In this document: positions 4,994-63,554 of the stretch, piece after piece
How the letters are laid out: each line of letters starts with the position of its first letter
Position numbering within the stretch: position 1 is the stretch's first letter
Source: a bacterium
GTDB lineage: Bacteria > Patescibacteriota > Microgenomatia > Daviesbacterales > UBA10151
Direction: 5' to 3'
Assembly (NCBI GenBank): GCA_021786105.1
Contig: JAJYNW010000006.1
Coordinates: forward strand, 7,012 to 71,011
Length of the DNA stretch: 64,000 nt
The notes under the pieces: generated by a model
Told to the model about the DNA's origin: nothing
The model's database searches: none
The model's input: only the letters and a program-made list of their open reading frames with translations
Program-made: the position numbers and the translations under genes

Positions 4994-5048
4994 GTGATCC
5001 CAACGATACATTGCACAGACTGAATGAGTTTTTTAGTTTATTCTTATT
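4994..5048. repeat. Left copy of a ~55-bp imperfect direct repeat (gtgatccc..cacagactga.tga..ttattctt) bounding a 1.6-kb AT-rich segment
   Basis: Aligns at ~80% identity with 6600..6652. The two copies flank ORF 5101..6210 and a 530-bp non-coding stretch. Confidence 0.6.
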
Positions 5049-5100
5049 TTGGATTAAAAGATGCATAAGTATGCGTATCAGAAAGTTTATCTCAAATGAG

Positions 5101-6210
5101 TTATTCTTGTTGACTAAATTCTTGAGTAATGCGTTTTTTGACTTCATCTGTTGCTTGTTCCATAGTCTCAAAAGTTTGTTGAGTAACTTCTCCTGTTTGT
5201 GGTTTCATAAATACAACGTCAACAGGTTTTTCTGGTTCGATAGAAGATAATTCTTCGAGTGTAATTTGATTTTGATCTAGCCTTATATCTGAAACAAGAG
5301 AACATTGAAAAAATCCAGTTTGGTCATTAGTAACAATAATTCCTATATTCGCTACGCTTGGGCCAAATAACATTGCGTCTCCTGCTCCTAATAAATCGAA
5401 ACCTCGTACTGTGCCAAGTTCTACAGTTTTCTTTTTTGCTTCACGATCTTCTCTTAAATACCTAACTCTGGTCCCCACTTGTAATTGATTCCATCGTTGC
5501 CATTCTTCTTCAGAAGATGGATCTAGGCTAGCAAAATCTGCTTCTTCTCCATCAATATCAAAAGCGATATATGTTTTCCCTTCATGTTCAATTCTTCTTA
5601 TGCTTGGTTTGTCTCTTACCTGATCTTCTAAACCACCTGCGGGCATAAAAGGTTTTCCCATTATCCTTTGTACTCTAAAAACAGTACTTAGCGGTATTGG
5701 TCTTTGTGCTCCTTCAGTTAGATCAATTGACTCTCTAATCTCTCTAGTCATCCACAATAAGCCATCTGCCAACGTTCTCAAATCTTCATCCATTAAGTTT
5801 CCTTGATATGCTTTAATTTCTTCCGGAATGGGCACTGCATTAAATGATTCTTGTATCCTTTTATAATGTGCACTAGTATCTTCATCGCTATGGTCTCCAT
5901 TCCAGTATGGACGCCATATATCGGAATGTACCTTACCCCAACGTATCCAAGGCTCTAATAAACGATCTGCCTCGCTTACAGTTTGGACATCGAATAATCT
6001 GTTAACAAAGGATTGTACCCATATAGCCCGCCTTCTGCCGACTCCGCTGTATTGATTTGGGTCTGCAAACTGCATATTCCACAGATTATATCCGTGCTTA
6101 AATTCATCAGTTTCATAGTATCTTTTCAGGAATTGGCGAGTAGATCCTCCAAGAGGTCTATCTAAATTAGGATCATGGTCAAATTTTGGGCCCGTGTCTC
6201 TATCTAACAT
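5101..6210 (-). CDS. Hypothetical protein in an AT-rich island, no recognisable domain
   Basis: 369-aa ORF. Codon usage and base composition are visibly more AT-rich than neighbouring genes. It lies between the direct repeats. Confidence 0.55.
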   Translation of the reverse strand: MLDRDTGPKFDHDPNLDRPLGGSTRQFLKRYYETDEFKHGYNLWNMQFADPNQYSGVGRRRAIWVQSFVNRLFDVQTVSEADRLLEPWIRWGKVHSDIWRPYWNGDHSDEDTSAHYKRIQESFNAVPIPEEIKAYQGNLMDEDLRTLADGLLWMTREIRESIDLTEGAQRPIPLSTVFRVQRIMGKPFMPAGGLEDQVRDKPSIRRIEHEGKTYIAFDIDGEEADFASLDPSSEEEWQRWNQLQVGTRVRYLREDREAKKKTVELGTVRGFDLLGAGDAMLFGPSVANIGIIVTNDQTGFFQCSLVSDIRLDQNQITLEELSSIEPEKPVDVVFMKPQTGEVTQQTFETMEQATDEVKKRITQEFSQQE

Positions 6211-6310
6211 ATTCTGTGTACATGGAGCAGGTTTTGACTGCTGTTATTATATCTAATTTAAGATTATTTGCATTATTTATTTGAAAAGAGGCAGGAGGTG
6301 GTGATGGTAA

Positions 6311-6481
6311 ATGTTGCCATTGGATGTAATCAGAAAATATTATTCTAATGCATCAGATGAGGAATTAAAAGGAATACAAGAATTTGTTTACCTTTTATCT
6401 TGCGGAATAATGCAGTATTTTTATGGATCTGATTGGGAAAAGGATATTATTGATTCAGATTTTGAAAATAAGAAAGATTGA
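6311..6481 (+). CDS. Small ORF (56 aa), acidic hypothetical protein with an upstream AGGAGGTGG
   Basis: Below the ORF-track length cut-off. 'aggaggtgg' at 6290-6298 precedes the ATG. Lies inside the island between the direct repeats. Confidence 0.25.
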   Translation: MLPLDVIRKYYSNASDEELKGIQEFVYLLSCGIMQYFYGSDWEKDIIDSDFENKKD

Positions 6482-6599
6482 CAGAACAATCCAATCATGA
6501 GTTCGAATCCTGCTCGGTCTCTTGTTTATAGGCTCAAAAATAAGGGATTTTTAACAAAATCTCGAGGCTAAATTTGTGCCAAAACACTAATATCATTCT

Positions 6600-6652
6600 G
6601 TGATCCCGATGATATCTTACACAGACTGAGTGAATTTTTCAAATTATTCTTG
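6600..6652. repeat. Right copy of the ~55-bp direct repeat (see 4994..5048)
   Basis: Same core: gtgatcccgatgatatcttacacagactgagtgaatttttcaaattattcttg. Confidence 0.6.
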
Positions 6653-6745
6653 TCTGACGGTCTAAACTCTGAATATACCTATCTCTTTTGCTTAAGAAAT
6701 GTACAATAAAGTACAGCAACTATTTTTATGCTAACATGAGAGCTA

Positions 6746-7303
6746 ATGGTTATTTTCATCGATGAATCAGGCATCCACAAGCAAACAGGTCATTCTACAG
6801 GAGCAGTTGTATATGTTGAGGTCAATAACTTTGAAAAGTTTGATAATAAGCTTAAAAAGATAGAGGAGGATTTAAAAATTAGTTACTTCCATTGGGCGGA
6901 AGAACGATGGTTTATGAAAAATAAATTTCTTTCTCGAATTTTCGATCTTGATTTTACTGTTAAGGTGGCTGTATTTGAAAATCCGGTAAAACCAGATTCT
7001 CTGCTTGAGATTGTATTCCAGCACCTTATTACAGAAAAAACCATCAAAAGTATTTATATCGACGGAGAAAAACCGAAATGGTACGAACATAAACTCAAGA
7101 AAGTATTACGAGATAAAGGTATAGGGCTTAAGAAATTGCGGACAGTAAGAAGTAAATCTGAAGTTGGTATTCAGCTTGCCGATGCTTTAGCAAGCTTAAT
7201 CAGATATTATCATGATAATCCGCAAGAAAAGGATGCTAAAAAGTGGTTTAGTAAGTTGAAAAAAGAGAAAAAGCTGGCTTTCGAACTGTTGGTTAATCAA
7301 TGA
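6746..7303 (+). CDS. DUF3800-family protein (N-terminal 'IFIDESG' motif); paralog of 62801..63373
   Basis: N-terminus 'MVIFIDESGIHKQ' matches the DUF3800 signature as I recall it. About 55% aa identity and ~80% DNA identity at the 5' end with 62801..63373. Confidence 0.6.
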   Translation: MVIFIDESGIHKQTGHSTGAVVYVEVNNFEKFDNKLKKIEEDLKISYFHWAEERWFMKNKFLSRIFDLDFTVKVAVFENPVKPDSLLEIVFQHLITEKTIKSIYIDGEKPKWYEHKLKKVLRDKGIGLKKLRTVRSKSEVGIQLADALASLIRYYHDNPQEKDAKKWFSKLKKEKKLAFELLVNQ

Positions 7304-7333
7304 ACAAGTTCTTGTCTTTGCCAATAAAAAACC

Positions 7334-7357
7334 CCACCTAAAGGTGGGGTCAGTTAG
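7334..7357. terminator. GC-rich hairpin ccccacc-taaa-ggtgggg with an A-tract 5' on the plus strand (T-tract on the minus strand)
   Basis: Perfect 7-bp stem immediately after the DUF3800 gene. The U-tract is on the minus-strand side, so it may terminate minus-strand readthrough or act bidirectionally. Confidence 0.5.
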
Positions 7358-7471
7358 TCAGCTAGTTCTTTCGAACTTTTCCCAGCCTGGGAATTTGTCG
7401 CTGATAACTTGTTATAAACGTATACTACCACAAGTACCCTTAAAATACAATCCCAATTCTAGCTTTAAAAA

Positions 7472-7573
7472 ATCGATCCCTGTGGCCAAGATGAATCATT
7501 TTTTACAATGTCAACATTCGCTCCCTAAAAGTAAGGTATTTTTACCCCGAGGACCATTCGGTGAAATTATTAT
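7472..7573. repeat. Copy 1 of a ~110-nt intergenic repeat (tcgatccctgtggc..acattcgc.ccctaaaagtaagg..cattcggt.aa..tatta)
   Basis: ~80% identity with 41716..41848 (copy 2). Copy 2 has an extra 31-nt insertion. The listed ORF 7344..7601 is probably not coding. Confidence 0.65.
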
Positions 7574-7578
7574 ACAGC

Positions 7579-8313
7579 TTAAAGGTATTTTAAATCAATA
7601 ATTTTGAAGGTAGAAAGTATATGTTCAAACATTTCCTGATCTCTTGCGTTATTCGAAATAGTAAAAATTACTCCATCTTTTGTGAAGTAGACTATGTCTA
7701 TTGGTGAGCCTACTGTTTCTGCACTGATTTTCTTAGCATCCAAACCATCCACTTTTAAATTTACCCAGCTATTAGAAATTGGGCTACTAAAAGACATTGA
7801 GAGTTGATCGTTCTGAGGCCATTGTTTGGGATCTACCTCTGAAAGTTGTTTATTTTTAGCAATTTTGATTGTGATTGATGGAATTATGTCGTTGAGTAAA
7901 CCATTATCTTTATTCTGAGCTTCTCCTAAGTAGATAGTCGCTGGGTCTTGGTAAATTAATTTTCCGTATGTTGTATAAGCTGTCCATATACTTGGAACTT
8001 CAACCTCAAAAACAGGATAACCTAAATGAAAAACTTTATATTGATATTTAATATAAGTACTTGAAGTGCTATCTTTAGGTAATGTTGTAGGGCTAATTTG
8101 GGGTGAGTATATAGTTTGTTTAACTTGAGACGATTCTTGATTTTTTTGAGTTCCTAGGTAATATGCACCTCCAGCTATAACGATCAAAAATATCACTACT
8201 CCTACTATCAAGGGAATAAAACCTTTCTGATTTGTTACTGGCGAATTATCAATTTTTGCTTTTGGGATTTCTTTAATAGCAGTTACCTGTGGTTTAGATA
8301 TATATGATTCCAT
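7579..8313 (-). CDS. Membrane-anchored hypothetical protein (single TM 'FIPLIVGVVIFLIVIAGGAYYLG')
   Basis: 244-aa ORF with an N-terminal TM helix. No recognisable domain. Confidence 0.5.
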   Translation of the reverse strand: MESYISKPQVTAIKEIPKAKIDNSPVTNQKGFIPLIVGVVIFLIVIAGGAYYLGTQKNQESSQVKQTIYSPQISPTTLPKDSTSSTYIKYQYKVFHLGYPVFEVEVPSIWTAYTTYGKLIYQDPATIYLGEAQNKDNGLLNDIIPSITIKIAKNKQLSEVDPKQWPQNDQLSMSFSSPISNSWVNLKVDGLDAKKISAETVGSPIDIVYFTKDGVIFTISNNARDQEMFEHILSTFKIIDLKYL

Positions 8314-8404
8314 ACTAGATTAGTATTTCAAAAATCAATCAATAACGCAACTGACCTCAATTATTGTTAACTTCTTTCATCTATTTTTAACTATTATTAA
8401 CTAG

Positions 8405-8477
8405 TGAGCCGGCAGGGGATCGAACCCTGGACCAAGAGCTTAAAAGGCTCCTGCTCTACCGCTGAGCTACCGGCCCA
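8405..8477 (-). tRNA. tRNA-Lys (anticodon UUU)
   Basis: Reverse complement folds as a 73-nt cloverleaf: GGGCCGG-TA-GCTC..GAGC-A-GGAGC-CTTTTAA-GCTCT-TGGTC-CAGGG-TTCGATC-CCCTG-CCGGCTC-A. Anticodon loop is CTTTTAA. Confidence 0.9.
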
Positions 8478-8518
8478 AACCTAATCTGTTTAATCTACTT
8501 TATCTTGCGTCCGGCATT

Positions 8519-8650
8519 ATAGTCGCTTCGTGACTACTCCTGCTCTTCCTGGGATAACCCTGATTTTAACTCATCCGCTGATCGCGGATCAGTATGTAGT
8601 TATCCCGTTAAAGTAAGGTTGCTTACTTTAACCCGCTGAGCTACCGGCCC
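8519..8650 (-). ncRNA. tRNA-Lys-associated structured element A: the first 19 nt of the tRNA-Lys(UUU) 5' end fused to a conserved multi-hairpin sequence
   Basis: Minus-strand reading: GGGCCGGTAGCTCAGCGGG + hairpin AAGTAAG/CTTACTT + GGGATAAC..GTTATCCC + ATCCGC-GATCA-GCGGAT + GAGCAGGAG + hairpin TAGTC..GACTA. A homologous element lies at 44200..44346 with compensatory stem changes. Confidence 0.5.
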
Positions 8651-8813
8651 TCGTCTAAGCACGGTTTATGTTTTCGCTTCAATGAATTGAAGCTTCAACT
8701 TTCACCGGCTTCTCCTCTCAAAATTGCTTCTCAATTTTGGAAAACACAGAAAATCAATCCTGAGTTTAATCAGTATTGTACTAAATTTGCTTTAATTTTG
8801 CTAATATGATCTC

Positions 8814-40633: not shown

Positions 40634-41668
40634 TTATTTTTCCTTTAAGATATAGTAAGTCGCTTTGCCTTTACCTTTTCTGCTAATTAAGTCTAGCTCT
40701 ATTAATTTCTTAAAATCCAGTGCTCTGGTTGCTTTTGCCCGTTTAGCTAGTTTTGCATAATCACGGTCAGCAATAAATCCTTTTTCTTTTATAAATTCAA
40801 GGATTTTCAGATGGTATGGCTTAAGTTGAGTTTGGGGATTGATTCCAACATCCGGCAAGATTTTTTGGACTCTTAAAAGTTCATCGATAATTCCTTCGGT
40901 AAAGTACTCAAGCCATGACGTAAAATCAATCTTATCTATTAGTTCATAATAGTTCCCAAATTCACCAACTGTTTGAAAATATTTAGTAACATTTTTATTG
41001 TAGTAATTCTCAAAGCTAAACAAATTAAAGGTATTAAGTCCCATTTCGGCAAGTAATACTTTTGTAGCAAGACGAGTTGTTCTACCATTCCCATCCATAA
41101 AAGGATGAATAATTACAAGTTGCTTATGAAAGATAGCGGCTAAAATAAGTGGATCAACGGTATCTCTATTTGTATTTACAAATTTAACTAATTCTTCAAT
41201 CAAGGTCTTAACATCTTTTGCGTCCGGGGGTAAATAAATAACTTTTCTAGTTCGTGGGTCATTAACCACGACAGGTTTCCATCTTAGCTTTCCGGATTCA
41301 AATTTAGGTAGTAACCCTTCAGTAATTTGTTTTTGAATCTTTAGGATAAGATCAAGTGAAAGTCTAACCTTATTTTCATCAAGCTTTTTGTTTAAGTCTT
41401 GTAATGCTTGGTTATAGTTTAAAACCTCTTTTTCGCTATCTCTAATATGAGCAGGTTTTGATTTGAGGATTTTTTTAACCTCAGTTAAAGGAAGAGGATT
41501 GCCTTCAATACTGGTTGAGGCATATGTTGAAACTGCCCTTGCTGTTTTTTCTAACTCTACTAAGACAACATGGGGAAATCTTCTGTTATTTAATTCATTA
41601 ACCAAAGAATTAATTCTTTTTATATTTGCGAGGAGTTGATCTGTGATTATATATTTCTGATTAAACAT
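40634..41668 (-). CDS. fic: Fic/Doc-family protein (probable AMPylase) with a C-terminal wHTH-like region
   Basis: Canonical Fic motif 'HPFMDGNGRTTRL'. Confidence 0.9.
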   Translation of the reverse strand: MFNQKYIITDQLLANIKRINSLVNELNNRRFPHVVLVELEKTARAVSTYASTSIEGNPLPLTEVKKILKSKPAHIRDSEKEVLNYNQALQDLNKKLDENKVRLSLDLILKIQKQITEGLLPKFESGKLRWKPVVVNDPRTRKVIYLPPDAKDVKTLIEELVKFVNTNRDTVDPLILAAIFHKQLVIIHPFMDGNGRTTRLATKVLLAEMGLNTFNLFSFENYYNKNVTKYFQTVGEFGNYYELIDKIDFTSWLEYFTEGIIDELLRVQKILPDVGINPQTQLKPYHLKILEFIKEKGFIADRDYAKLAKRAKATRALDFKKLIELDLISRKGKGKATYYILKEK

Positions 41669-41848: not shown

Positions 41849-42294
41849 ATATATACTTGGTGTGTAGTACGTTATGTCAAGCATCGTAATTTTTTAATAA
41901 GGTATGAATGTATGAAAAATAAAAATTATTTAGCTCGATTTGCAAATGCCAGTTCCATTGCCTCATTTATGTTAGGTATTGTTATTGGGAAACTTGGCTG
42001 GAGCAGCAATGCAATAAAGGCTGATCTCCAAAATAAAAATCCAGAGTGTTTTCCGTAAAATACGCGGTATAAATAACTAAGCTTTGATTAGACCGTTATA
42101 TCAATCTAATCCCAGTCTGTTTTTAGCACTATCTGGTGAGCTATCTGTACCAATTTTCGAACTTGTATGATGGAATGATAGTTCTTTATCAGAAGCTTAT
42201 TCAACTATTCCCAAGCGTAGAAAAAGAAGGTTTTAGGGTTTTCTATATAATCAATTTATAGTAGGATGGGGGTTGCAGAAAACCGCCAAATGAA

Positions 42295-43338
42295 CTAATT
42301 ACTTGTAGGTGGATATTCCCAGCAAGAAGGTTGCCCATCTGGAACAGCAACCCACTTCTGCCATTTTGGAGATTTCTTTGCTTGATCCAATTCTTTCCGG
42401 GCTCTTTCTTCTAGTGCTGCCGGAGAGGATCCGTGTTCAACCCTTCGGACAGTCTCATTATATAGAGCTGTTTCTAGTAAAGTTTCACTATCTGCTGCTT
42501 CTCTTGGAATACTAGCACTGTAAAACTCAAGATTGGTCTGTTTTTGCTCTGTCCAACCGCTAAGAAAATGTTCACCTGGGTAGCCAACAGAAACCGAGGA
42601 TATGCATAATTCCTTTCTATCGTTTCCGGAATCTTGTTCTACATTAACTACTGTAATCCGCAAAGCGGTACTGTTTATAGCAGGTTCATATCTTTGTGTT
42701 TCTGGATGGCCGGGTGTGTAGTCACCAGAACCAATATTAAGTCTGCCTTCTACTTTAGGAACATACTGCATTCTCACACTAGGGTACTGATAAAATAGCT
42801 CCAACCCACCCATATCATGTGTCCAGTTATATGCATAATTTTGGTGCGTATAACAAGCTTTTTTACCTGCAATAAAAGTTCGTCCTGCCGCTCTTCTAAT
42901 TTCACCTCTGCCTCCCCATATTGTATCCTTGATATATTGCAACCTTTCCGCTACTCTAAATACTTCTAAGATACCATCCGTTTCTTTTCTTATTAATTCT
43001 TGTTGTTCTTCTTGTAGTTTTATTGCTTCTTGACGCCTCAATTTTTCTGATTTTGCAAATGCCTCTGCTGCGGCTGCCGCTTCTGCTGCTTTCATATTCT
43101 CTAGATCAAGCGCTTTCTGTTGATCTGCCGCTAGCCGTCCATCAACAACTGAATTAATTTTATCTGCAAAATTCTCTAATCCCGGTGGAGGTTGTCCAAA
43201 TGTTGGTTGACTTGTTATTAGAGTAGGATTTTTTGATGGTTCAGTTATTCCGAAAATTCTTCTTAAAAATCCAGGGAGACAACCTTGAGGTTCTTGAGGG
43301 GCAGTTATACCAGTTTGCTTAGGTGCTTCTGCTGACAT
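42295..43338 (-). CDS. Hypothetical protein (Pro-rich N-terminus, Ala/Glu coiled-coil, globular C-terminal domain)
   Basis: 347 aa, no recognisable motif. Lies in the Fic/tRNA-Lys island next to a 2H phosphoesterase. Confidence 0.5.
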   Translation of the reverse strand: MSAEAPKQTGITAPQEPQGCLPGFLRRIFGITEPSKNPTLITSQPTFGQPPPGLENFADKINSVVDGRLAADQQKALDLENMKAAEAAAAAEAFAKSEKLRRQEAIKLQEEQQELIRKETDGILEVFRVAERLQYIKDTIWGGRGEIRRAAGRTFIAGKKACYTHQNYAYNWTHDMGGLELFYQYPSVRMQYVPKVEGRLNIGSGDYTPGHPETQRYEPAINSTALRITVVNVEQDSGNDRKELCISSVSVGYPGEHFLSGWTEQKQTNLEFYSASIPREAADSETLLETALYNETVRRVEHGSSPAALEERARKELDQAKKSPKWQKWVAVPDGQPSCWEYPPTSN

Positions 43339-50997: not shown

Positions 50998-51800
50998 TAC
51001 AATATCCTACCTCGGAGGTAGGAGTGAGGTTACACCTAGGGTTTTAGGTAATTTTCAATCTTCCCCATCAATTAATAAATGCTTTACCGTTTCTAAGCTC
51101 TGTGCGTATTCTACCTGGTCTAACACAAATTGTTCATATTTCTTTTTAGTTTTGAACAAAGATAAGATGATATCATTTGTACAAACCCTGTCTATTTGTA
51201 AGCCAATATAAGCTAGGTAGGATGACCAAGAATAATCTTTTAGGTTTTTAACCAAAAACGATGCAATTGGATTTAAATGAATATATCGAGAAACATGAAT
51301 AAGTTGCGTATCAGATTCTATTCTTACAGCTTTAAATTGCCCTTGTAAGAGCGGACCTATTCTATTGTGTTTTGCATTAAAAAATTTTGTATAACTATTT
51401 GAGATTTTATTGATAAACTCAGAAATACCATTTTCTTGGAGCTGTTTTATCAAGAAATGGTAATGATTTGGCATTAAGCAGTAACATAGAATCTCTACAA
51501 TCTTTTCATTCTTCTCAAATTTGAAATCCTTAAACCTATTTAGTTGGGAAAATTGTGGTTTAGGTCCTTGGAATTGGTAATAATAAATTGTTTCCAGGAA
51601 GCGATTGTAATCTCTTTTATCTGTAAAGATTGGCAGTTTTGCTACACCACGATTAAAAACATGATAGATTTGATCATTAACAAGTGGGGTTGTTCGATAG
51701 GGCATATAAATAAACTAAACTATATAAACCCCACGTGTCAATACATTTCTACCTCGGAGGTAGGAGTATAATGATACATAGGGTTTTGTGACTCTAAGCT
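50998..51800. mobile_element. IS200/IS605-family or RAYT-like element: a Y1 (HuH) transposase gene flanked by ~50-bp direct repeats, each with a CTACCTCGGAGGTAG hairpin
   Basis: Left flank 51003-51052 'cctacctcggaggtaggagtgaggttacacctagggtttt'. Right flank 51752-51800 'ctacctcggaggtaggagtataatgatacatagggtttt'. The transposase CDS lies between them. Confidence 0.65.
51055..51705 (-). CDS. tnpA: IS200-like Y1 (HuH) transposase / REP-associated tyrosine transposase
   Basis: 'YHVFNRGV', HuH motif 'LMPNHYHFLI', and 'SRYIHLNP' carrying the candidate catalytic Tyr. Typical Y1_Tnp architecture. Confidence 0.75.
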   Translation of the reverse strand: MPYRTTPLVNDQIYHVFNRGVAKLPIFTDKRDYNRFLETIYYYQFQGPKPQFSQLNRFKDFKFEKNEKIVEILCYCLMPNHYHFLIKQLQENGISEFINKISNSYTKFFNAKHNRIGPLLQGQFKAVRIESDTQLIHVSRYIHLNPIASFLVKNLKDYSWSSYLAYIGLQIDRVCTNDIILSLFKTKKKYEQFVLDQVEYAQSLETVKHLLIDGED

Positions 51801-62800: not shown

Positions 62801-63373
62801 ATGGTTATCTTCATCGATGAATCTGGTACTCATAAGCAAGTAGATCATACTACCATAGCCTTAGTCTATGTAGAAATAGCCAATCTGGAAGAATTTGAGA
62901 AAGCAGTAGAAAAGATTGAGGAAAAGTTAAGTATCAAACACTTTCATTGGACAGATGAAAAATGGGAGAAAAGGGGAAAGTTTATTGAGCAAATTTTGAA
63001 ACTGGATTTTTTTGTTAAAGTAGCCATACTAAAAAACCCAATTAAACTTGCTGAAAGCCTAGAAGAAGCCTTAAGACATCTTGTGGTTGAAGAGAATATA
63101 AAGAAAATTATGCTTGATGGTAGAAAACCAAGATGGTATAACCAAAAGCTGAAAAAAGTATTAAGAGATAAGGGTGTATCTGTTAAAAAGATTGTTACTG
63201 TCAGAAAAGATGAATCTAGTCCTGGGATAAGAGTATCTGATTGTTTAGCAGGGTTAATTAGAAGTAATTACGATAATCCCGATTCACAAGCTTCTAGGTG
63301 GTATGACAGGATGAAAAATGCAGAGAAGATTAGACTTGAGATTACTACTTATCCACAAAAAAGCCTCGCTTAA
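62801..63373 (+). CDS. DUF3800-family protein; paralog of 6746..7303
   Basis: 'MVIFIDESGTHKQ'. Colinear with the first copy along its whole length. Confidence 0.6.
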   Translation: MVIFIDESGTHKQVDHTTIALVYVEIANLEEFEKAVEKIEEKLSIKHFHWTDEKWEKRGKFIEQILKLDFFVKVAILKNPIKLAESLEEALRHLVVEENIKKIMLDGRKPRWYNQKLKKVLRDKGVSVKKIVTVRKDESSPGIRVSDCLAGLIRSNYDNPDSQASRWYDRMKNAEKIRLEITTYPQKSLA

Positions 63374-63384
63374 AGCGAGGCCAG
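63361..63384. terminator. Hairpin gcctcgc-ttaaa-gcgaggc directly after the DUF3800 paralog, with an A-tract on the plus-strand 5' side
   Basis: Same geometry as the hairpin after the first DUF3800 copy (7334..7357). Confidence 0.45.
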
Positions 63385-63554
63385 TTGTACAGGTAGTACT
63401 AATTTCTTAGAACTCGGCGGCTCACCGTCCTTTGTCCCTGCCAACTTGTTGTAAATGTATTATATCACAATCTGTATTAAAAACTCATCTCAAAATCAAA
63501 ACACCCATAAACTAAGGTTTAATGAGAAAATAAGTCTGGTATAATTTTCCAAGA

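Follow-up and report, generated by a model that had tools for sequence, protein, structure and literature searches.

Two direct repeats, at 4994 and 6600 of the 64-kb stretch of Patescibacteria DNA analysed here (the window), enclose a segment of about 1.6 kb. The locus raises the question of whether this segment was inserted as a unit and where the two repeats came from. An earlier note, made from the letters of the window, had read the segment as an inserted element with a duplicated attachment or target sequence. The features of the segment are given below; handles such as L004 denote the fetched loci with which it was compared.

4994..5100, no strand: left repeat (DR1-long), the gene-distal end block F, with homology to what follows the 369-aa gene in L004, in L024 and, as far as assembled, in L005
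5101..6210, minus strand: 369-aa gene, whose family is rare and confined to Patescibacteria (22 homologs, dN/dS 0.12-0.31)
6211..6310, no strand: divergent intergenic (promoter) region between both genes, 93% identical to L005
6311..6481, plus strand: 56-aa gene, predicted three-helix protein (pLDDT 87; dN/dS 0.12-0.19)
6482..6599, no strand: P' arm, non-coding, at the small-ORF end, with sequence conserved in relatives
6600..6719, no strand: right repeat (DR2-long), a second occurrence of end block F (z=6.4 when aligned to the downstream flank in L004)

The core of the repeat was 52 nt long (4994-5045 versus 6600-6651, 81% identity, spacing 1606 nt), in agreement with the direct repeats of about 55 bp and 80% identity noticed earlier. 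When one 32-nt indel was allowed, the repeat lengthened to ~107 nt on the left (~4994-5100) and ~120 nt on the right (6600-6719); this extended alignment scored 8.8 sd over shuffles, and 0 of 500 shuffles equalled its score. The left copy consisted of the core, B1 (~5048-5063) and the sequence up to the 369-aa stop codon. The right copy consisted of the core, block I (6654-6685, the 32 nt missing from the left copy), B1 (6686-6702) and an outer part to 6719, and was cut off by a DUF3800 cassette at 6719/6720. The 19% divergence and the 32-nt indel indicate that the event is old, or that the two sites were never identical. A profile built from both copies detected no further one, either elsewhere in the 64-kb window or among the other loci; its sole additional match was weak and partial, at the equivalent position in L004. 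A longer, widespread intergenic motif, the possibility that the earlier note had set against its own reading, was therefore rejected: the repeat is longer than first described, and the window holds 2 copies only. The same arrangement was present in two further assemblies (one 100% identical over the part covered by its contig, one 99.9%) and is therefore not an assembly artefact.

The repeat-bounded segment had a GC content of 36.1% versus a window mean of 40.3%, which is only the 9.5th percentile, and its tetranucleotide usage was in the top 1.6% of windows. It had been described as AT-richer than its flanks; the segment is deviant, but the deviant tract is wider. From the left repeat to the 3' end of tRNA-Lys (4994-8403) it formed the lowest-GC 3.4-kb stretch in the window, in the top 0.2% of k-mer deviation. 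The neighbouring features are as follows.

6720..7450, plus strand: DUF3800 cassette, an independently mobile neighbour; the same unit lies between uvrB and uvrA in L026-L028
6746-7303, plus strand: DUF3800 gene (Pfam E=8e-12)
7348-7415, minus strand: DUF3800-II RNA (Rfam RF02961; 73.8 bits versus a gathering score of 43.2)
7579..8313, minus strand: 244-aa hypothetical gene, assigned to the low-GC island from composition only
8404..8476, minus strand: tRNA-Lys(TTT), whose 3' end is the other edge of the 3.4-kb deviant island
63379-63452, minus strand: second DUF3800-II RNA (55.5 bits)

The DUF3800 neighbour and the tRNA-Lys about 2 kb away were thus confirmed. Each of the two DUF3800-II RNAs directly followed the 3' end of a DUF3800 gene. 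These genomes repeatedly contain tandem arrays of cassettes with imperfect repeats of 35-65 nt, for example at uvrB/uvrA in L026. A Y1_Tnp gene was present elsewhere in the window (51055-51705), and another adjoins DUF3800 in L026.

Comparison with related Patescibacteria showed that the same cassette, at 73-88% nucleotide identity, occurred in at least five other genomic contexts. L005 aligned to positions 5048-6611 of the window at 87% nucleotide identity, which is almost exactly the stretch between the repeats, and its surroundings (Lon and tRNA-Glu) were unrelated to those in the window. The L024 cassette was 88% identical, with a GIY-YIG gene and a PIN toxin-antitoxin pair as neighbours; the order there was GIY-YIG islet, tRNA-end copy, cassette and then repeat. 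The L004 cassette was 84% identical and kept a degraded version of the repeat arrangement. The cassettes of L013-L015, L019 and L020 were 73% identical and adjoined an IS256/Mutator transposase and a Bro-N gene. More distant contexts of the 369-aa homologs were L006, L007 and L025. The homologs in L006, L007, L012 and L025 were found in operons (with an IetA-like ATPase, a ParB_N protein or ~250-aa ORFs) and lacked the cassette ends; the ~250-aa ORFs upstream of distant homologs were unrelated to one another and to the 244-aa ORF of the window. The 369-aa gene was the sole constant component over all contexts. Judged from these alignments, the segment is a discrete unit of the insertion type that appears to be horizontally distributed; the fetched loci had no other genes in common with the window from which a background divergence could be taken.

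The 369-aa gene had been called an orphan; this did not hold, since it has 22 homologs, though the family is rare (13 clusters among 1.84e9 representatives). The predicted structure of its product (pLDDT 85) had a helical N-terminal domain and SH3/Tudor-like beta-barrels at the C-terminus. The 369-aa and 56-aa proteins had no match in Pfam, PHROGs, NCBIfam or PADLOC, and searches for remote homology (PDB sequence profile; Foldseek against PDB and BFVD) returned nothing significant. The phage and plasmid search proposed in the earlier note was run on the 369-aa ORF, and the phage, plasmid and IMG/VR collections gave no matches; a phage or plasmid origin of this gene was rejected on that ground. 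The small ORF reported within a 530-bp non-coding stretch is present, but the stretch (535 nt) holds in it a real conserved gene. The 56-aa protein shared 89% amino acid identity with its relative in L005 and 56% with that in L024. Its gene and the 369-aa gene occur together in the window, in L005 and in L024; in L013, the small gene is interrupted by a stop. The dN/dS values show that both genes are under purifying selection. The region between them was the best-conserved part of the cassette. In the P' arm, the T-arm-like motif pointed out earlier (GAGTTCGAATCC, 6499-6510) is conserved in relatives, but neither ARAGORN nor Rfam called it as a tRNA; the signal for a conserved RNA structure in this arm was weak and unconvincing. 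The terminus of the cassette in gene orientation is AGAATGATATT.

Block F lies downstream of the 369-aa gene, is 110-150 nt long and ends in ~12 nt that resemble the acceptor 3' strand of a tRNA. It was present once, at the gene-distal end, in L004 and L024, and the right repeat was homologous to the downstream flanks of both, block I included. L026 and L029 had no such block ahead of DUF3800, nor did L022 and L023 have one after the 229-aa gene. In the window, the right repeat lies directly against the P' end of the cassette, as in a circular or tandem junction. The repeats thus appear to be two copies of the cassette's own end; no duplicated target, as proposed in the earlier note, is indicated. 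What stands of the inserted element is a discrete unit shared with L005 in an unrelated neighbourhood, but the repeats are not its duplicated target and it has no integrase. An empty site with a single repeat copy was also searched for, and none was found. In L023 and L022, the closest relatives of the left flank, synteny ends exactly at the 229-aa stop codon, and other sequence follows. L029 was rejected as an empty site, its 229-aa DUF3800 neighbour being unrelated to the 229-aa gene of the window. The repeat as a general DUF3800 leader was likewise rejected; it is missing at the second DUF3800 locus of the window and in L026 and L029.

The outer 12 nt of the left core (GTGATCCCAACG) look like a tRNA 3' end in reverse complement, and the inner 12 nt of the right repeat (GTGATCCCGATG) correspond to the 3' end of tRNA-Glu in L005. 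Alignment of the extended repeat with this tRNA-Glu and its upstream region was not significant (z=1.9, 29/500 shuffles). Only ~12-13 nt matched tRNA-Glu, and tRNA-Lys was almost equally good, so a tRNA core of the repeat is not proven; derivation from a tRNA would be demonstrable for ~12 nt of the repeated block at most. Decayed tRNA-Glu pseudogenes, suggested by eye from a -10-like box, GACCGTC and a CTCA anticodon-like word, were rejected on the same score, save for the terminal 12-13 nt. No intact tRNA was found at either repeat in the 64-kb window, and the island held no copies of the tRNA-Lys 3' end at ≤2 mismatches.

The relatives showed a clearer relationship with tRNA genes (cassette ends are marked by a slash). 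In L005, the P' end abuts an intact tRNA-Glu(CTC), ...CCGGGGTCAC/AGGATGATATT. In L024, it abuts an exact 14-nt copy of the 3' end of the neighbouring tRNA, ...CACCCGCTCCAT/AGAA, the identity of this tRNA at the contig start being read from a 28-nt fragment, beyond Rfam scoring; a 44-nt repeat of 91% identity, which takes in the tRNA 3' end, stands on both sides of the L024 island. In L013, the P' end abuts a degenerate tRNA-Gly 3' end, ...ACGCTGCCCAT/AGGA, with a tRNA-Gly(TCC) 1.1 kb upstream. The corresponding junction in the window is ...TCGGGATCAC/AGAATGATATT, where the boundary has just a 12-13-nt tRNA-Glu-like end, with the closest genuine tRNA (Lys) 1.75 kb off. As the P' end of the cassette meets the 3' end of a tRNA, or a copy of such an end, in three loci (L005, L024, L013), the link to a tRNA-type attachment site, which the earlier note had suspected, is supported.

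No recombinase was found in either cassette protein (Pfam, PHROG, NCBIfam) or among the genes within 10 kb on each side, and no transfer genes were found in the cassette or among the same genes. The predicted fold of the 369-aa protein was unlike those of recombinases. No integrase-bearing relative was found among the 369-aa contexts L004-L020, L024 and L025, in databases that hold mostly short contigs; L006 lies within a Prim-Pol/HTH element, and its contig carries no integrase. No excised or circular junction was found. The segment ends had no terminal inverted repeats, and no transposase domain was detected. There was no attC-like hairpin in the repeats (fold z -0.6 to +1.6), and subterminal hairpins of the IS200/IS605 or REP/RAYT type at the cassette ends were not significant. 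As no fetched locus had an integrase of matching specificity, site-specific recombination is something that we infer only. Of the features of a tRNA island, the segment has the atypical composition and lacks an integrase of its own. Of those of a cis-mobilizable element (CIME), it has putative att-type direct repeats, no integration or transfer genes and a tandem arrangement with other elements.

Several explanations of this structure were weighed. A simple insertion between the 229-aa gene and DUF3800, duplicating ~52 nt of the resident site, would agree with repeats that bracket exactly the segment shared with L005, with its deviant composition and with the genuine target-derived 44-nt repeat around the related island in L024. 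It is unlikely: the repeated sequence belongs to the cassette's own end in L004 and L024 and is missing beside DUF3800 (L026, L029) and after the 229-aa gene (L022, L023), 52-120 nt far exceeds a transposase target duplication, and terminal inverted repeats and a transposase are lacking. The repeats could instead be functional cis elements (a structured RNA, a terminator or an attC-like site) and no scars of recombination. The right copy lies upstream of DUF3800 and the left copy downstream of two convergent genes, and structured RNAs do accompany DUF3800 genes (PMC5737381). However, neither repeat copy folded better than shuffles on either strand (z -0.6, -0.7, +1.6, +0.4), Rfam gave no match to the repeats, and promoters and terminators were not in excess above chance; a structured RNA or attC was rejected on the fold and Rfam results. 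With no repeat upstream of the second DUF3800 gene and two copies only, this explanation is extremely improbable. It is also highly improbable that the element is autonomous and that the 369-aa protein, possibly together with the 56-aa protein, is a new recombinase targeting tRNA 3' ends. Such a role would suit the constancy of the 369-aa gene across contexts, its confident yet unmatched fold with no relatives beyond the 13 clusters, and a small helical protein encoded beside the end site, where excision cofactors often sit. Against it, fold and profiles are unlike tyrosine, serine, DDE and HUH recombinases, the predicted C-terminal SH3/Tudor-like barrels suggest binding over catalysis, and the operon settings without cassette ends (L006, L007, L012, L025) fit cargo, not a transposase. 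A wider version, which we consider very unlikely, is that Patescibacteria have an undescribed system of tiny cassettes without a recognisable recombinase gene that insert at the 3' ends of tRNA or housekeeping genes, are stacked with 35-150-nt imperfect repeats and are moved by an enzyme not yet recognised as a recombinase. Its examples may be the 369-aa/56-aa unit, the DUF3800 gene + RNA unit and the GIY-YIG islets, and the enzyme may be the 369-aa protein, or the RNase H-fold DUF3800 protein with its structured RNA.

Local tandem duplication without mobility (unequal crossing-over or slippage), followed by deletions and the DUF3800 insertion that left an orphan F, is unlikely. The order F-P'-genes-F is the exact remnant of a partial tandem duplication, and plain tandem duplication of the cassette plus deletion would leave an identical structure. 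The two copies are slightly closer to each other (79-81%, an alignment reading) than either is to F in L024 (74%), and the same arrangement, degraded, is found in L004, so that the structure would be old and passed on vertically in that lineage. Duplication would account for the origin of the right repeat but not for the distribution of the cassette: at least five unrelated contexts, P' ends precisely at tRNA 3' ends and, elsewhere, tandem arrays with repeated target ends are left without an account. The preferred reading, to which we give an even chance, is that the segment is a decayed, integrase-less, CIME-like islet that tandem accretion at an attachment site of the tRNA type left behind.

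According to this accretion reading, the segment would be a two-gene cargo cassette without its own recombinase, in a tRNA-proximal island built by successive (tandem) insertions. One copy of F in its normal place on the left and a second against P' on the right would be the joint of tandem elements or of a circular form. A related element ending in F would already have been integrated; the present cassette would then have recombined into the end site of this older element, which would later have been largely replaced, partly by the DUF3800 gene + RNA cassette. The accretion at this locus, and the recombination mechanism itself, would presumably be site-specific, with the enzyme supplied in trans, and the cassette is probably immobile today. 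The cargo may have a defence-related role, since the genes that share operons with its homologs encode an IetA-like ATPase or a ParB_N protein.

That decayed, att-flanked elements accumulate by accretion is well established (PMC5704250; PMC3146451). Like the CIMEs of Streptococcus ICESt1/ICESt3 (PMC5704250), the window cassette has direct-repeat flanks, no integration or transfer genes and signs of decay; it lies in tandem with other small elements near a tRNA, and its joint with the neighbour resembles the junction of an intact element. Unlike them, it has no known parental ICE/IME or matching integrase, it is very small (1.6 kb, two genes), its repeats, at 52 to ~120 nt, are long, match imperfectly (81%) and consist mainly of non-tRNA sequence, and its host belongs to the Patescibacteria (CPR). 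The ssrA islands of Dehalococcoides (PMC3146451) are likewise small cargo islands that form arrays behind a tRNA-like gene, each bounded by a repeat of that gene's 3' end; many have no integration module, and they are low in GC, highly variable and contain ParB-like genes and pseudo-tRNA motifs. However, those islands have a clean 20-bp ssrA 3'-end repeat and the serine recombinase DsiB, whereas in the present case the tRNA-like part is ~12 nt, several tRNAs (Glu, Gly, possibly Lys) are concerned and no recombinase was seen. Integron cassettes share the one or two genes, the imperfect ~50-140-nt repeat bounds and the arrays, but the window repeats, in two copies only, have no attC-like palindrome or significant single-strand fold, and there is no IntI/attI. 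The IetAS system (PADLOC IetA) was also compared: in L006, the 369-aa homolog comes right after an IetA-like AAA ATPase (E=1e-31) and occupies the place of the partner gene, but the 369-aa protein matches no PADLOC model, IetS included, and in the window its gene is paired divergently with the 56-aa gene and not with an ATPase.

A literature search yielded no account devoted to tRNA-associated islands in Patescibacteria. Candidate-phyla bacteria have tiny genomes, and to our knowledge the acquisition and shuffling of accessory genes in these bacteria are poorly described. The present locus and its relatives show that, in part, the variable regions of these bacteria consist of stacked one- or two-gene cassettes with defined ends and long imperfect repeats, located at tRNA ends or, in L026, at the 3' end of uvrB. 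The sole recognisable recombinase seen in the stacks is the IS200-like Y1 transposase gene in the L026 array. The cassette is a moderately interesting fossil of gene-island build-up and no new kind of system; should it record nothing beyond ordinary integrase-mediated accretion, its value would be that of a useful, unsurprising annotation. Such islets can be catalogued by their sequence signatures (cassette ends, F block, tRNA-end copies), and the locus is a testable place to seek the missing enzyme. The 369-aa gene represents a rare family whose fold is confidently predicted but unmatched, and the varying partners with which it shares operons (IetA-like ATPase, ParB_N) may point to a role in defence.

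In the Patescibacteria (CPR) metagenome-assembled genome that holds the window, alignment showed a direct repeat of 52 nt (4994-5045 and 6600-6651) with 81% identity. The ~55-bp repeats described in the earlier note were thus confirmed, and were longer than claimed: across one 32-nt indel (6654-6685, missing in the left copy) the similarity extended to ~5100 on the left and ~6719 on the right, and the extended alignment scored 8.8 sd over shuffles. The same arrangement was found in a Logan contig (100% identity over the covered part) and in a second NCBI assembly (99.9%), which excludes an assembly artefact. A profile built from both copies gave no third copy in the 64-kb window; therefore, the objection that the repeat is part of a longer, widespread intergenic motif does not hold. 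The AT-richer composition claimed for the repeat-bounded segment was seen only in mild form (36.1% vs 40.3% GC, 9.5th percentile). Its tetranucleotide usage was among the top 1.6% of windows, and the strongest deviation lay in the wider tract 4994-8403, from the left repeat to the tRNA-Lys 3' end, which was the window's lowest-GC 3.4-kb stretch and in the top 0.2% in k-mer deviation. Another locally low-GC stretch contained a Fic/DOC-family gene (40634-41668, minus strand; Pfam E=1e-18), which has no relation to the cassette.

Two divergent genes are enclosed by the repeats:

5101-6210, minus strand, gene for a 369-aa protein, no match to known families
6311-6481, plus strand, gene for a 56-aa protein, recognised by conservation and dN/dS

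The 369-aa protein had no match in Pfam, PHROGs, NCBIfam, PADLOC or the PDB sequence profile. It had been called an orphan; 22 homologs with 36-100% identity were found, Candidatus Roizmanbacteria among them, and the family comprised only 13 clusters in an exhaustive profile search over 1.84 billion representatives. The dN/dS was 0.12-0.31. The search of phage and plasmid databases that the earlier note had proposed gave no homolog, and IMG/VR was likewise empty. The small SD-led ORF is a real gene: it was conserved in the loci L005 (89% aa identity) and L024 (56%) of related Patescibacteria, with dN/dS of 0.12-0.19 and three predicted helices; a stop interrupted the version in L013. The 100-nt divergent intergenic region was the best-conserved part of the cassette (93% identity to L005). 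In the non-coding arm at the small-ORF end (P' arm, 6482-6599), the T-arm-like motif at 6499-6510 was kept in every relative retaining the arm. This tRNA T-loop-like GTTCRAWTCC was the best-conserved element of the arm in four lineages (window, L005, L024, and L013), the adjacent tRNA being on the other strand. The motif is real and conserved, but no detectable tRNA, tRNA-like fold or conserved RNA structure was found around it; it is a candidate binding site or a candidate relic of an older attachment site.

Comparison with other loci showed that the segment is a discrete cassette occurring in different places.

Occurrences of the cassette and of distant 369-aa homologs in other loci
L005: window 5048-6611 at 87%, almost exactly between the repeats; beside Lon and an intact tRNA-Glu(CTC)
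L024: window 5032-6390 at 88%; between a GIY-YIG gene and a PIN toxin pair
L004: window 5055-6272 at 84%; DUF3800 remnant next to the gene
L013-L015, L019, L020: window 5116-6390 at 72-73%; IS256/Mutator-family transposase, Bro-N gene, and tRNA-Gly 1.1 kb from the cassette end
L006: distant homolog; in a Prim-Pol element, with an IetA-like AAA ATPase as partner
L007: distant homolog; partners a ParB_N protein and an ORF of 249 aa that has no annotation, with tRNA-Glu(TTC) upstream
L025: distant homolog; partner a 255-aa ORF, near BrnT/BrnA and tRNA-Ile

The distant homologs were thus in operons with different partners. These changing partners, the PADLOC match of the ATPase in L006, and neighbourhoods with toxin-antitoxin and mobile genes hint at a defence-type role for the cargo. 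In L006 (6246-9110), the IetA-like ATPase (PADLOC E=1e-31) was followed after a 4-nt gap by the 369-aa-family gene, within a Prim-Pol/PriCT/HTH element; this pair could represent a two-gene defence variant with another protein in place of the usual protease partner.

Downstream of the 369-aa gene lies a conserved block of 110-150 nt (block F; sub-blocks B1, I, and C), which corresponds to the left repeat and was also seen in L004, in L024 and in as much of L005 as was assembled. The right repeat is a second F copy; it retained block I, like L004 and L024, and aligned to the L004 downstream flank at 6.4 sd over shuffles. Because F stands at the cassette end in these loci and recurs in the right repeat, the repeated sequence belongs to the cassette, not to the target. 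The repeat sequence did not precede DUF3800 in L026, in L029 or at the second such locus of the window, nor did it follow the 229-aa gene (the left neighbour of the cassette) in L022 and L023, whose synteny with the window ended exactly at the stop codon of that gene. Of the inserted element with duplicated attachment or target sequence proposed earlier, the inserted, att-related unit near a tRNA was upheld, but the repeats are element ends and no target is duplicated. A 120-nt non-coding block at 42136-42256, downstream of the ORF 42295-43338 (minus strand), was 79% identical to L023 1110-1228, the sequence after the 229-aa gene homolog, and is therefore a conserved non-coding element in two different places.

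At the small-ORF end, the homology of window, L005, L024, L013, and L019 began at one shared point (AGRAW..., gene orientation).

Sequence directly before AGRAW
L005: ...CCGGGGTCAC, 3' end of the intact tRNA-Glu
L024: CCCCTCACCCGCTC, exact 14-nt second copy of the contig-start tRNA 3' end
L013, L019: ...ACGCTGCCCAT, degenerate tRNA-Gly 3' end
window: ...TCGGGATCAC, inner end of the right repeat

The window's TCGGGATCAC matched the L005 tRNA-Glu end at 10/12-13 positions. The repeat as a longer "pseudo-tRNA" failed the shuffle test (z=1.9), the tRNA likeness being limited to ~12 nt. In L013 and L019, a transposase gene lay between the degenerate end and the real tRNA-Gly. The 28-nt start of L024 was called tRNA from its canonical T-arm and acceptor strand, being too short for Rfam scoring; a GIY-YIG gene separated both copies of the tRNA 3' end, and the island (GIY-YIG gene and cassette) was bracketed by a 44-nt repeat (91% identity) consisting of the tRNA 3' end and 33 nt downstream of it. 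In L024 1-370, exact 14-nt tRNA 3'-end copies at 16-29 and 354-367 enclose a small gene for a GIY-YIG nuclease (89 aa, Pfam E=4e-16); this minimal tRNA-end islet and the 369-aa cassette lie in tandem. In the window, a strongly structured RNA-like region (8495-8652, minus strand; MFE -57.2 kcal/mol, z = -7.3 vs shuffles) was located 157 nt upstream of tRNA-Lys. Its start reproduced 18 nt of the tRNA-Lys 5' end exactly (8633-8650), and it had an acceptor-like closing stem and large hairpin inserts, without a T-arm; ARAGORN (introns allowed) and Rfam gave no call. L001 and L003, both of the same organism, were the only loci with this region.

The right neighbour of the cassette, a DUF3800 gene with an antisense-oriented DUF3800-II RNA (RF02961), occurred twice in the window (6720-7450 and 62801-63452). 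The 730-nt unit (6719-7450) was also found between uvrB and uvrA in L026-L028; these two genes are adjacent to each other in the window. In these loci, the unit (4656-5376 in L026) was beside a Y1 (IS200-like) transposase gene and flanked by degenerate uvrB 3'-end copies; the L026 insertion was an array in which cassettes were separated by at least three such copies, with duplicated pieces of the uvrA start. Stacks of small cassettes with imperfect 35-65-nt repeats therefore recur in these genomes, and the gene and RNA together behave as a mobile 730-nt cassette. The DUF3800 protein had 235 homologs at E <= 1e-20, dozens of them 80-95% identical, mainly on short contigs, some named Daviesbacteria and WWE3. 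An RNase H-like fold is predicted for DUF3800 (PMC10910872); a mobile unit in which a protein of nuclease fold is paired with a structured RNA of its own merits separate study. A stand-alone IS200-like Y1 transposase (RAYT-like, 51055-51705, minus strand, 216 aa; Pfam Y1_Tnp E=1e-8) shared ~53% identity over 94 aa with the L026 transposase next to DUF3800, and no role in the cassette could be demonstrated for it.

In gene orientation, the window reads F, ~12 nt of tRNA-like end, P' arm, 56-aa gene, and 369-aa gene, followed by F, ~12 nt of tRNA-like end, and the 229-aa gene flank. F directly against the P' arm is what a tandem-element joint or a circularised element looks like. In the simplest history, the cassette would have integrated at the end site of a related element already in place; most of the older element would then have been lost, and its remains would have been cut at 6719/6720 by the DUF3800 gene and RNA cassette. 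In L004, the 369-aa gene is still accompanied by a degraded F, together with the promoter of DUF3800 and what is left of its first codons; the arrangement is therefore older than the window/L004 split (dS ~0.68), consistent with the 19% divergence of the repeat copies. A plain tandem duplication with later deletion would leave the same local structure, but it explains neither the distribution of the cassette nor the tRNA-end junctions. Neither the cassette nor the 10 kb on either side encoded a recombinase, and searches for an integrase-bearing relative, an excision junction and the empty site (single repeat copy) sought in the earlier note found none. A Patescibacteria cassette system that is recombinase-independent or uses an unrecognised enzyme is improbable. 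That the cassette is a CIME-like (cis-mobilizable element) fossil in a tRNA-proximal accretion island is the best explanation and has, in our estimate, an even chance of being correct.

Tandem accretion has been well documented for decayed, att-flanked elements that lack an integrase, for example CIMEs (PMC5704250) and the Dehalococcoides ssrA islands (PMC3146451). The cassette resembles CIMEs in being integrase-less and, in this reading, decayed and part of an accretion island. As a CIME-like fossil, it would be a variant of already described accretion elements in a little-studied phylum.
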